From Aplysia californica (lineage: Eukaryota), in NCBI RefSeq assembly GCF_000002075.1, contig NW_004797321.1, forward strand, positions 356,835 to 420,834: a stretch of DNA of 64,000 bases. The letters are read 5' to 3'. Below, one piece after another: positions 40,422 through 49,950 of this stretch (positions are counted from its first letter, which is position 1; every line of letters starts with the position of its first letter). Both the position numbers and the translations under genes were made by a program. Under the pieces are notes generated by a model. The model saw only the letters and a list, made by a program, of their open reading frames with translations, was not told where the DNA came from and made no database searches.

Positions 40422-40639
40422 CTCCCTCCCCTAAGATCCTGTATGGCCACCACGGGCGCGTAACCTGCCTCCTATACCCTTTCAACGAGTCCACACGCTA
40501 TGAGCCCCACCACCTGCTGTCCGGAGGCTCTGACTTCTCAGTGGTTCTGTGGGACGTCAATGGAGGTGTCAAGATTCACACCTTCACCGTGCATGGGGGG
40601 AGTCTGAGTCACATGACAGTACCTCCTGCTAACTGCAAT
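40422..40639 (+). CDS. WDR7: WDR7 coding exon 12 (LYGHHGRVTCLLYP...LLSGGSDFSVVLWD...PPANCN)
   Basis: tctcccctcag| acceptor, |gtaagt donor; complete WD40 repeat; phase 1 to 0. Confidence 0.95.
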
Positions 40640-40817
40640 GTAAGTTGGTAAAATATTTTTAAAAACCACAAGCAAACAAACCAAAAAACTATACGGTTTT
40701 ATGAACACTAATTGCAATGTGAGTTTGTAAGATAAAAAAAAACAACTCCCCCCCCCCCCCCGTTTTTTTCTTTACTCTAGCTGAAATGTGAGTTAGTAAA
40801 TTATAAAGAAAAAGAAC

Positions 40818-41259
40818 ATTTGTGTTACGTGGGGTGGAATCAGGCACTCATCTGGGTTTTTTGGGTCATATGGAGTTATTTGCATTATCTTAAACCATGT
40901 TTGTTTTTCTATCTTTCTTTGAAAAAAATACACGTCTTTCTTGAATAGAAGTTGAGATGTTTGCGATTGAAGGAACTGGGTATCGCCTAGTTTCCGAGGT
41001 AAAATCAGTAAGAAATGGGCCACTTAAGTTTAGTGACTTCTATAGCTTGAGAGACCTTGGATAATGGAAATTTACTTTTTTGGTGCTTTTAATCCACAAG
41101 TTGCAGTAAAATGCACACTGAAATTTGTTTTTAAATGGACACAAAATGTGTTGAGCAAAGATCGAAATTTCGAAAAAAAATTGGCCAAACCAGCGGAAAA
41201 ATGTCGATATATTTCATTATTTTGACGAGCATGTGATTTCACAACGATGCCTCACAAAT
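40818..41259. mobile_element. TIR MITE, copy 1 (ATTTGTG...CACAAAT termini)
   Basis: Imperfect ~35-bp TIRs; homologous along its length to 41410-41849. Confidence 0.65.
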
Positions 41260-41409
41260 TTCTGAACACATATTGCAATGTGAGTTGGTAAAGGAGGAAG
41301 GAGGATGAAGGAATTGTAATCTTGGTTTGACTTAGTGCTGGAACAGTTCCTGCACGGTAAGTGTGAGTTGGGGTCTTGATTTTAGACGAGCCTTTTATTT
41401 TACAGAAAT

Positions 41410-44889: not shown

Positions 44890-45314
44890 GTGCAGATAAA
44901 GGGATGACTGACAAAGATAAAATCTTACTTCTATTGATACTTGTATTTGAATTATTATTTTAATGCATGCTCTATGCATATCCCATTCTTTCCGTTTCTC
45001 TTGATGATTTATTTTTAGCTTTTTCCTTTACTATCTCTGTGGTTTATTGTGGCTTTCATACCAACCTACCTACCTACACCTCCCCCTTCCACACACACAC
45101 ACACACACAGAGACAGAAACACATGCACGCACACATGGACACTCTCACATGCTTCCAGACATACATATGTGTGTACACATGTATGTGCACACATACGCAC
45201 ATTTACACACAGTCTCACACACAGATAGTCAGACAGACAGACAGACGGGCATGTGAAAACCCACCCCCACCTGCTCCTCTTCCTTCTATACCCTTTATAT
45301 CTTTGTCCCCTCAG

Positions 45315-45462
45315 ATGGGTGGCCACGCCAACCAGCCCAGCCCTGGCCACAAGTCCGAACTGGTCAAACCTACAGGATTCCCTCTCCTCATTCAAGGCAT
45401 CAAAACCAACACCAGAGACCCAGATGCTCATGTGCTCTTCTTTGACACAGAAGCTTTGATAG
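45315..45462 (+). CDS. WDR7: WDR7 coding exon 15 (...PLLIQGIKTNTRDPDAHVLFFDTEALI)
   Basis: tcccctcag| acceptor, G|gtcagt donor; phase 0 to 1. Confidence 0.93.
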
Positions 45463-46464
45463 GTCAGTCTTGATTTATTTGCTCATTTGTTTGCTTGCGA
45501 AGTGAGTTTTTGTCTGTTTAAGTAGTGCTGGGAAAAAGCAAAACCGGCAAACAGAAACTAAAAAGGGATAGTAAAGAAGTACGACCTACCGGTTCCACCC
45601 TCCAGCCACCCGATAGCTGAATGTAGTTTTATTAGAGTCGAACAAATGTCATTTCTGCTACATCGTGAGGAAACGGGTGAACAAAGATTTTGTCAAATAC
45701 AAGATAAGAAGTAACTTAAATTGTCATATCCAATCAAGAGAAATATAACAGATTCATTGCAATATATCTTATAGAATTTTACAGAGAAGGACATTTGATT
45801 TCCAGGTACAGTTTTGAGTACTGGTGCAACTGTGTTAGAGATATGTGCGATTCAGGCATGGGACCTCTCGATGGGTTTGGTTTTTTTCTCTAGATGTTCT
45901 TATTTTATCTTTACATGTAGTGTTAATGCCTTTGCTGCTTTTCTGCCTTGATCAGTATCTCTGGTACTGAATAACCTCTATACCAGGCGATCATGTTTTT
46001 ATGACATGCTTCTACTTTTTTAGGAATGCATATAATCTCATCCTTGACAGCTTTTGTATCAATTTCCTGCTCAGGGCTGACTTTTCTGAATTGTTTCCCA
46101 CATTATGCTTTATGTAACTTTTAAAAAAAAACCCGACAGCATGCATTGTCTTACCTACACGCTACATTATTATTCTGCTGTCCCACGGCAGGGCACTGTA
46201 ATGTATGGAATCAGAGTTTTTGGCTTCATTGGTTTGTTGCACTTGTCTTGCCCCTATTTTCCCTATGTGAAAGGTTGGATGGTGTATCTACATCCGAAAT
46301 AGTAGTTTTCAAAGGGATAAAGCTACAAAAATGACTGATCTCAATAGTTTTTCCCTTTTTTTTTTCTCAAAATCATGAGATGTGTAGTTACGTTGCTCTG
46401 CCTTTGGACGGCAGAATTGTCAATGGGGTCTTGCTTCAGGGTATGGGGATTGTAGTTCAAAGAC

Positions 46465-48476
46465 TTGTCTGTCCATCCTCTCCTAGTCTATTTCCTTACG
46501 GATGAGTATACTTGTCTGTCCATCATCTCATCACAGATGAGTACACCTGTGTCTTTCATATTTCAGTCCCTCTCCTCTTGGAGGAATATACTTGTATGTT
46601 TGTCCATCATCTGTCCATCATCTCTCAGTCCATCTCACAGAGGAATATACTTGTCTGTCCATCATCTCCTCTTGGAGGAATATACTTGTCTGTTCATTTT
46701 CTCCTCTGGAAGAAAAACACTTGTCTGTCTATCCTCTCTCAGTCTATCTCTTCGTGGAGGAGTATACTTATCTCGCCATCCTTTCCTTATGAAGGAGTAT
46801 ATCTGTCTGTCCATCATCTCTCACTCTCAGTCCGTCTCCTCACTAGTGTTGGGTCGGGCTCGCAAAATTAGCGTCCGTAAGTAACGAACTACTCGCTGGC
46901 ACTACCCGCAAACGAGCGGACGAGTAACGAACCGTCCGTTTGAGAAGAGTAGTTCACTACTCGCTACTCGCTACACATTGGACAGAGACAACAGTTCGTT
47001 TAGCGAGCGAGCAGCGGGGCGGACCGAGAGACTCCATGCATTCGAGTGGGCGGACGGACGGATGGGAGCGACTCCTTCCATTGTATACAACTTACAAACC
47101 TCCCCCCCCCCCCCCAACAAAAAAAAATTAATTAAAAAATCACCCTCCTGCCTCACATTGTAGCTAGGCGTTCATGGCGGAAATTTCTCTCCCACCCCCC
47201 CCTCCCCCGGCCTTTGCGATAATTGGAATGTACACAGTGTGCCCACACTCAAGGTGAAAGTTTACACACATAGTACTATGTCACCAGCCTCTCTCACTCG
47301 CTGTGGCGCCGCCAGCGGTCTGAAACATTAGGCTTATTTAACAAACAATAGACCTGGGCCTAACCTCGCGTCGAGTATCTCGTCTGCTAGAGTTCGTCCG
47401 TTTGCCCACCCGCCCAGTGAATAAAATTGTGGAGCAGACCCAAAAACTGTCTTGAGGTCTGCAGTCCGCTCGCTGAGAGAGTCAAATTGTGGAGCGGACC
47501 CAAAAAATGAACTGTCTTGAGGTTCGCAGTTCGCTCTCATGGCCGTCCGTTACCCGCTCGCTCTGACTGAGTCCGCGATTCGCTCGCCCCAACTCTACTC
47601 CTCTCGGAGGAGTATACTTGTCCGTCCATCATCTCCTCATTGAGGTATAGATCAATACTTGTCTGTCCGTCATCTCTCACTCTCAGTCCATCTCTTCTCG
47701 GAGGAGTATACTTATCTGTCCATCATCTCCTCGTAGAGATGTATACTTGTTCGTTCCATCATCTCTCACTCTCTGTCAATCTCTTCATGGGGGAGTATAC
47801 TTATCTTAGCTTTCTATCATCTCCTCACGGAGGTGTATACTTGTCTGCGTCTGTCCATCATCTCTCACTCTCAGTCCATCTCTTCTTAGAGGAGTATACG
47901 TAGCTTTCCATCATCTCCTCACTCTGTCCATCTCTTCATAGGGGAGTATACGTAGTTTTCCATCATCTCCTCATAGAGGTGTATACTTACCTGATTATCA
48001 TCTCTCACACTCAGTCCATCTCTTCATGCAGGAACTTATCTTTCCATCATCTCCTCATAGAGGTGTACACGTGTCTGTCCATCATCTCTCACTCTCAGTC
48101 CATCTTCTCTCGGAGGAGTATACGTGTCTGTCAATCATCTCTCACTCTCAGTCCATCTTCTCTCGGAGGAGTGTACGTGTCTGTCAATCATCTTTCACTC
48201 TCAGTCCATCTTCTCTCGGAGGAGTATACGTGTCTGTCAATCAGCTCAGTCCATCTTCTCTCGGAGGAGTATACGTGTCTGTCAATCATCTCTCACTCTC
48301 AGCCCATCTTCTCTCGGAGGAGTGTACGTGTCTGTCAATCATCTTTCACTCTCAGTCCATCTTCTCTCGGAGGAGTATACGTGTCTGTCAATCAGCTCTG
48401 TCCATCTTCTCTCGGAGGAGTATACCTGTCTGTCAATCATCTCTCACTCTCAGTTCATCTCCTCACGGAGGAGTAC
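46465..48476 (+). repeat. Minisatellite (~53/45-bp unit) made of the exon-16 acceptor plus the first ~23 exonic nt
   Basis: Unit GTCTGTCAATCATCTCTCACTCTCAG|TCCATCTTCTCTCGGAGGAGTATACGT; interrupted by the hAT element at 46844-47597. Confidence 0.92.
46844..47597. mobile_element. Non-autonomous hAT element (754 bp) inserted in the splice-acceptor minisatellite
   Basis: TIRs TAGTGTTGGGTCGGGC / TAGAGTTGGGGCGAGC; 8-bp TSD CTCCTCAC/CTCCTCTC; CpG-rich subterminal motifs. Confidence 0.8.
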
Positions 48477-48579
48477 GCCCTTCTGTCGCCGGCTGAGCTG
48501 GAGGCTCGGGGCATGAACGTCCCGGAGAAGGCATTGTCGGCACAGAGTGACTTGAGTGAGGCTCAGCAGAAACTGTCAG
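48454..48579 (+). CDS. WDR7: WDR7 coding exon 16 (VHLLTEEYALLSPAELEARG...QQKLS)
   Basis: cactctcag| acceptor (the last of many tandem copies), G|gtgagt donor; phase 1 to 1. Confidence 0.88.
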
Positions 48580-49950
48580 GTGAGTCTTTCACAGTGTCAT
48601 GGTGAGGAGGAGGAGGGGAAGACATGAAGGGGAAGGAAGAGGAGGGGAAGACATGAAGGGGAAGGAAGAGGAGGGAGAGGGGGACCTCCATGTTCTCGTT
48701 GCATAAGGAAGTAATAATATAGTTTCGATATATTTCTCTTTACTTCTTTTCTGTCCCTTTTTTGTTTCTCTCTATCTTGCTTTTGTCCGACACTAAACAG
48801 CTGGCATTGTGTTGATTGGCTTCTCTTTACTCCAATAAGTATCTTCTTCCCTTGTGTTGGGTGAAATAGTTGTATCGATATGTCAGTACTTTGTGAAATG
48901 GTTTCAGTGCCTTGCTGTGAGTATTCCTTAGTTGACTGTTTATGTGTGACTGATGAAATGAATAATATGTCGCCCATAGAGTAGACAACAATACATGAGG
49001 TGCTTTGTCTCATTGGTTGACATGTAAACACATGTCATATATCTGGTCTGATAGCCCTGACAGAGTTGGGCCATAGGGGACAATCTGTAATTCCATGTCT
49101 GCTAAAATTGTAAATGCCTTCTGGAACCATGGCCACTACTCTTCTGGTCAGGGAAATTAAAACATCAGAATTCTTTTTTTAGGTTCCACTTATTTTCTTT
49201 TTTTCCTCTTTTGTTTTTAAATCTGTCTTTCTTAATTCTTGGGCTAGATAGCTGTTATTGTGTTGGTGTTCCCACATCTTTGTTGTGTGCCTATGCCTAG
49301 ATACTAGCTGATCATTGTGTTCTCTTTGTTCAAGCCATTTTTTCTCTGCTTTTATTTCTGTTTGTTGTTTTGTGATGCATGGCTGCCTGATAATCTCTAA
49401 TCATGTATTGCTAATAACTAATCAACCACTTTTGTCCGAAGTACTCTTTGGCTGTTTATTAATGAAACATTATTGCTATTGTTTAGTGGCATGTGAATAT
49501 ATGTATAGAGATATAATGTGTGTGCATGTGTGTGTGAAATCAGGCGGTTGTCAAAATAATTATATTGAAGGCGCTGACATTTTTTCTGCCCATTGGGCAA
49601 TTTTAATCAGTGGGGGGGGGCGTTGGCACAACACCTTACATGACCATTTAAAACATTTTTTACTGAGAAATATTGATCAAAGGCACAAAAAAATATAAAT
49701 TACAGTTTTCAAGGACACTCGAGCTTTAAAAATCACAGAACTTCGGTAGCCATTTCTTCTCTAATTTCACCTCTGAAACCAGGCATCCACCATCTCCTTC
49801 AGGGGCAAATATTTTGACTTCTATCCAAGATGAATGGGTGTTTTCTTTATCAGAATCAAGACAAATGATCAAGCTTTAAGATAATACCGATAACTCTATA
49901 TGCCCTCAAATTTCAAGTGTATGATTCCCCTGTCATCACGCTCGGGCACA

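Follow-up and report, generated by a model that had tools for sequence, protein, structure and literature searches.

The junction between intron 19 and coding exon 20 of the Aplysia californica WDR7 gene has been copied in tandem: 26 decoy units, parsed by hand, occupy positions 46465–48425 of the window (the 64,000-nt stretch of contig NW_004797321.1 that was analyzed), directly in front of the acceptor that is spliced. We consider it probable that this array is a 'mirage' minisatellite, restricted to a single locus, that likely began with a chance duplication of 53 nt and is likely tolerated. Like the amphioxus mirages, which the available portions of the published accounts describe for Adh3, troponin C, the globins BflGb6 and BflGb9, and PGBD5 (PMC3087553, PMC3902484), it consists of minisatellite-like tandem copies that extend over an intron/exon boundary. 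By its sequence features the array is a well-preserved member of this known class; four of six mirage features are present, that is, tandem units that span the boundary, splice signals kept in many but not all units, restriction to one locus, and concerted evolution within the cluster.

The exon that ends at 45462 is a 100% match to P0001, which its source labels WD repeat-containing protein 7 of A. californica; WDR7 is a regulator of the V-ATPase. Our exon map was built from isoforms placed on the window, with five junctions assigned by eye. The donor at 45462 and the exon start at 48454 that were given in a preliminary description of this DNA agree with the isoform mapping and with spliced contigs; the exon that it numbered 16 is coding exon 20 in the map of isoform P0025. 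The donor behind exon 20, at 48580, has the highest score among the donors of the gene (first of 25; the donor itself is in the training set). A Pfam search with seven exons gave WD40-type matches for two of them, whereas exons 19 and 20 had no match; a search of solved structures with P0028 at E 1e−20 gave no match, and an atlas search with the 49-residue exon gave no usable match. The features are collected in Table 1.

Table 1. Features of the WDR7 intron 19/exon 20 region, in positions of the window.
Feature	Position	Strand	Basis and remarks
WDR7 coding exon 19 (exon 15 of the preliminary description)	45315–45462	+	148 nt; phase-1 donor 45462|45463; 100% match to P0001; spliced contig ends
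In-frame 69-nt cassette exon, weak sites (2.3 and 2.2 bits)	45806–45874	+	GT..AG joint in X17 contig; replaces exon 20 in P0002 and X17
Distal, oldest block (L1–L4, S1–S4, 5' half of L5)	46465–46843	+	Unit parse and divergence
Non-autonomous 754-bp DNA transposon with terminal inverted repeats	46844–47597	+	Inserted in exon-like part of unit L5
Middle block, long and short units alternating, older 84–94 nt higher-order period; candidate 84-nt length allele	47598–48070	+	Unit parse, TRF, X4 record 15
Proximal, youngest block (L11–L17), including the 151-bp repeat	48071–48425	+	0–4% nearest-neighbor divergence; X1 contig depths fit
Decoy AG of L13, in frame, stop-free	48203–48204	+	Would add 83 residues
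Decoy AG of L14, in frame, stop-free, behind a poor tract	48248–48249	+	Would add 68 residues
CTG instead of CAG in last decoy unit, L17	48398–48400	+	Sequence; X1 record 1 and X17 record 9 show no variant
Live acceptor, tract and AG (48452–48453)	48426–48453	+	Newest intron part of the array by sequence; derived CAATC variant
WDR7 coding exon 20 (VHLLTEEY...)	48454–48579	+	126 nt; phase 1-1; joined to exon 19 in X4 and X8

A 20-nt pattern taken from the exon start has 17 matches, all of them within 46524–48475, compared with none in 100 shuffles; this bears out the array of acceptor and exon-start copies first seen in the letters. The units are of two types. The 17 long units (45–59 nt) align to 28 intron and 25 exon bases, and the aligned place of the acceptor holds CAG in 13 of them, TAG in one and CTG in three; the nine short units (35–41 nt) lack an aligned AG, their exon part following directly on the beginning of the tract. 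The preliminary description had given every unit a pyrimidine tract, CAG and the peptide VHLLSEEY, which is too uniform a picture: YAG is kept at the aligned place in 14 of the 26 decoy units, and VHLLSEEY is encoded by five. Its 151-bp ABC-ABC repeat (units of 53, 53 and 45 bp, twice) is found at 48124–48274 and 48275–48425, with two differences in 151 nt. TRF carries this repeat to 2.5 copies, the last of which ends in exon 20; the live acceptor is therefore the start of a third 151-nt copy. The CTG reported just before the true acceptor is present and is not peculiar to the last unit. Selection for CTG beside the exon is unsupported, since three of the 17 long units have it, it fits the unit's own CTGTCCATC sub-repeat, and L17 keeps another CAG at 48393–48395. 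When the proximal array and the exon were compared with G000, at least four matches were obtained, all at this locus, and on these matches an origin of the array from a dispersed repeat is rejected. Taken as a whole, the preliminary description was right about the array, the 151-bp repeat, the splice sites and the CTG; its account of the units and its exon number were not sustained, and it missed the transposon.

The transposon lies between target duplications at 46836–46843 and 47598–47605 that are alike at seven of eight positions, and its junctions with the array are present in run X1. At least 39 other copies, 85–88% alike, were found (40 scored of 393 candidates), and 8-bp duplications flank all five of the other copies inspected; the family thus has at least 40 copies with 8-bp target duplications. 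Terminal inverted repeats together with an 8-bp target duplication characterize hAT-type non-autonomous elements, and by the 8-bp rule the insert is classed as hAT-like. On these observations the insertion is likely old. The element also contains two YAG sites with pyrimidine tracts (47162–47163 and 47416–47417) that could serve as further acceptors.

Divergence from the nearest neighbor is 15–19% in the four distal long units, 7.5–20% in the six middle units and 0–4% in the seven proximal units, and it falls toward the exon (Spearman −0.81 for the 17 long and −0.72 for the nine short units, which are not independent of one another). The distal copies do diverge more among themselves, as their earlier description as degenerate implied. 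The accompanying proposal, growth polarized from the exon edge, survives as an age gradient that holds in blocks, but the exon was not the template. Repeated copying from the exon is ruled out: the proximal units are alike among themselves and differ from the true unit at 7–8 positions (5–7 of the 25 in the exon part, 1–2 in the intron part). The most exon-like copy is the transposon-split L5 (5 differences in 53), which lies 1.6 kb upstream. The true unit is a mosaic, with an intron part that carries the CAATC variant common only to L12–L17 and an exon part in the CTC CTC ACG state of L5. On this distribution of variants, the intronic 28 nt of the live acceptor is the newest unit of the array, and we infer that the array units were amplified in a register that takes in the live tract and ends at the AG.

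A history that fits these observations would begin with a duplication of ~28 intron and 22–25 exon bases, a chance 53-nt duplication perhaps aided by the likeness between the tract and the exon start. At exon 20 this likeness is above that of 27 of the 28 other acceptors of the gene (tied first among 29); it may have seeded the array and its short units, or it may have resulted from the array. The array would then have grown through slippage or unequal exchange between its own units, in three or more rounds: the distal units, the long–short dimers after the transposon, and then the 53-nt units and the 151-nt repeat. The register of this growth would carry the live acceptor's tract along and leave the exon out.

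With a splice matrix that is rough (trained on 23 acceptors of the gene), the true acceptor scores 3.9 bits (gene median 7.0) and the decoys 0.3–7.9 bits; nine of the 14 equal or exceed the true site. The earlier argument that the spliceosome must choose the last of many equivalent AGs is thus supported, and since the decoys match the true site in score, site strength does not select it. Nor does reading frame distinguish the decoys: the 53-nt unit does put most of them out of frame, as pointed out earlier, but this is nothing special, because the frame is kept by five of the 14, close to the third that chance predicts. Avoidance of the frame is thereby rejected. Three of the five in-frame decoys run into a stop and two (48204 and 48249) are open; in all, a premature stop is predicted for 12 of the 14 if they were used. 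The exon, 126 nt from the true AG, would be 184 to 2093 nt long from the decoy AGs, and most of its purine-rich GAR triplets fall in the part that was not copied. Recursive splicing or an array of micro-exons was considered and rejected: the decoys have no AG|GT and the array has no strong donor, its best GT scoring 5.6 bits, compared with 4.1–12.4 bits for 25 real donors, 20 of which are higher on the same rough matrix.

We think that the array is tolerated because the spliceosome likely defines exon 20 from the strong donor at 48580 and so takes the last AG, in line with the short length of the true exon and the place of its GAR triplets. Rare mis-spliced products would be cleared by nonsense-mediated decay, which is established for such products and is proposed here because of the predicted premature stops.

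Three runs (X4, X8 and X17) are treated as RNA-derived since their contigs are spliced; none of the runs listed as containing the array is on record as RNA. X4 carries another organism label (B), yet it shows no variant across 130 exon bases (48452–48581) and has the same array letters; these identities suggest that it is from the same species under another label or from a very close relative. Junctions were read from contigs only, which drop rare forms and in which simplification can hide a junction; reads were compared with two unique flanks only, and a junction to a decoy deep in the array is visible only where a contig fits the last unit as well. The raw-read runs X21–X23 gave 1, 0 and 0 reads on 45270–46460.

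The preliminary description proposed that junctions from donor 45462 be mapped to each repeat AG. In X4 and X8, contigs of depth 160 and 29, respectively, join exon 19 to 48454 and continue to the exon at 54792. A junction between exon 19 and a decoy is found neither in the contigs of X4, X8 and X17 (from which rare forms drop out) nor in any of 14 annotated Aplysia isoforms. In X17 we see a bypass of the exon instead: a contig of depth 20.2 runs from exon 19 through the 69-nt exon to 54792, and exons 19 and 20 are not joined in any contig. The sole contig of this run that contains exon 20, at depth 7.55, is colinear with the array, and its 3' end is spliced. Contigs that bear the array are present in all three spliced runs, at depths of ~3.5–7.5 for single-copy pieces. 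Two further observations were set aside as evidence: among the rows listed, X17 has no cover in the 5' intron, and in none of the three spliced runs does the unit to the left of the transposon give a loose end.

Eleven of the 14 annotated Aplysia isoforms use 48454, two skip exon 20 (P0019 and P0027) and one has the cassette (P0002); one further Aplysia member of the cluster lies outside these 14. For comparison, 196 proteins were taken, nine of them without an anchor being left out, and 173 are from other organisms among the matches listed. Exon 20 is included by score in 167 of these 173 and, judged by eye, in a diverged form in four amphioxus homologues; one is a genomic read-through fragment, and one, P0122 of Patella vulgata, skips the exon. 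Bypass is thus seen in 3 of 14 Aplysia isoforms vs 1 of 173 listed homologues, counts that are not independent because they include isoforms and close species. The cassette has a single match in G000, its peptide is in none of the 173 homologues among the matches listed, and it has so far been found only where exon 20 is absent (P0002 and run X17). Elsewhere in the gene, a 623-nt alternative exon (51124–51746) is absent from the X4, X8 and X17 contigs and from P0028 and is included in P0025 and P0019.

The X17 path and the three bypassing isoforms count against calling the array harmless. If the array is not neutral, the competing acceptor copies would weaken or slow the recognition of exon 20, and the exon would be skipped or replaced by the new 69-nt exon in some tissues or genotypes, the resulting WDR7 isoforms being lineage-specific and their share set by array length; we regard this as possible but unlikely. 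The lack of the cassette peptide in the listed homologues and a true acceptor that scores below the gene median point in the same direction, as does a possible length allele: between two anchors, X4 record 15 lacks 84 nt relative to the assembly, the difference spanning a 27-nt exact repeat, although at a depth of 4.17 it may be an error, as may any contig under depth 5. There is also a precedent in the available text on human ABCA7, in which skipping of exon 19 is tied to a donor-side VNTR (PMC5954066). However, skipping is also annotated in P. vulgata, isoform counts vary with RNA depth and lack independence, splicing is normal in X4 and X8, and the bypass contigs come from one run, where simplification can hide a junction. 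The corresponding history, in which the newest unit of the array overwrote the live polypyrimidine tract, made a conserved, near-constitutive exon alternative and let the 69-nt exon replace it, is likewise doubtful; in that case repeat length would tune the WDR7 isoforms.

It is considerably less probable that the decoy AGs are themselves used, as a regulated splicing-plus-decay switch or for in-frame insertions of 83 or 68 residues. The decoys do resemble the true site in score, two of them are both in frame and free of stops, and every spliced run has contigs that bear the array; moreover, ABCA7 is described, in the part of the report available, as keeping one repeat unit by means of a cryptic donor (PMC5954066). 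Against such a switch are the lack of any exon 19–decoy junction in the X4, X8 and X17 contigs or the 14 isoforms and the absence of a frame bias, and unspliced precursor explains the array-bearing contigs equally well.

Assembly can readily collapse or expand 151-nt copies that are nearly identical, and the DNA-like run X1 is a possible source of this assembly, but an artefactual proximal block is very improbable given that the X1 depths are consistent with the assembled copy numbers, the array letters recur in runs from three studies (X1 and X8, X4, X17) and the units bear private variants. The X1 contigs of 271, 57, 44 and 251 nt have depths of 0.9x, 1.1x, 3.9x and 1.0x single copy, and the unitigs predicted from the assembly (k = 31 graph) are 271 nt once, 57 nt once, 44 nt four times and 250 nt once. 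Four of the eight X1 contigs shown (56, 43, 330 and 1787 nt) have no simulated unitig of equal length; two of these enter the dispersed transposon, and the simulation took in neither dispersed transposon copies nor contig simplification.

The tolerated mirage, our preferred reading, can be set beside several published systems, each as described in the portions of the sources that were available. As in amphioxus, splice signals are kept in many, not all, units, and the units evolve in concert; the authentic copy, spliced normally in amphioxus, is used here in two of three spliced runs and 11 of 14 isoforms; as in BflGb6, the array is of the acceptor type (PMC3087553, PMC3902484). Unlike the amphioxus mirages, the WDR7 array is in a gastropod, has two unit types and nested higher-order periods, and contains a transposon that orders its blocks; its youngest block abuts the exon, whereas the boundary units of BflGb6 escape homogenization; and some Aplysia RNA bypasses exon 20, whereas the amphioxus mirages are reported without interference. 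The 37-bp VNTR in IVS7 of human F7 similarly has a first unit that spans the exon boundary and a row of identical silent pseudo-sites, of which the exon-adjacent site wins; it is on the donor side, and its pseudo-sites are proven functional by mutation, whereas the WDR7 decoys are predicted from sequence (PMC1557585). Human CBS 844ins68 is a duplication across an acceptor that takes in 52 bases of intron and 16 of exon; splicing uses the downstream copy and removes the upstream one. Unlike the WDR7 array, it amounts to one extra copy, a polymorphism (PMC7490669). The human ABCA7 intron 18 VNTR also has a splice site within the repeat and exon skipping nearby, but is donor-side, and the dependence on length was measured in ABCA7 (PMC5954066). 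Directional VNTR growth has been noted for human WDR7 and for STRs (PMC8327921); the human WDR7 69-bp VNTR shares the gene name and directional growth with the Aplysia array and differs in unit length and lineage, and we treat the likeness as a coincidence. Beta-globin substrates with duplicated acceptors show exclusive distal use and very inefficient splicing (PMC5389562), an analogy that is compatible with the choice of the last AG and not decisive. A report of the Aplysia WDR7 array was not found in the literature searched, a search whose coverage excludes subscription journals.

Other repeats in the window also touch splice signals. A 41-nt array at 25872–26193 (7.9 copies) ends in the acceptor of a 27-nt exon (26194–26220) and is a second splice-signal array in WDR7; its last unit gives a branch-like motif and the pyrimidine tract, and its copies lack the AG and the exon part. 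Three echoes of the donor at 40639, located at 40711, 40780 and 41272 (17–19 of 22 bases; region 40632–41293), are possibly a decayed donor-side mirage; for the other donors, the best matches were 11–15 in 27 of 28 and 17 at donor 9040. A purine-rich 29-nt repeat (48605–48675; 2.4 copies, 97%) starts 25 nt behind the exon 20 donor.

For the question of how a 3' splice site is chosen, the array is a natural test: a standard animal of neurobiology has here 14 acceptors that are nearly equivalent and can be ordered by age. The array also indicates that repeat turnover can replace the tract of a working acceptor while the exon stays in place. If it is true that the array causes the bypass in X17, the working view of mirages as harmless to splicing would be overturned, and new alternative exons could arise directly from a minisatellite.
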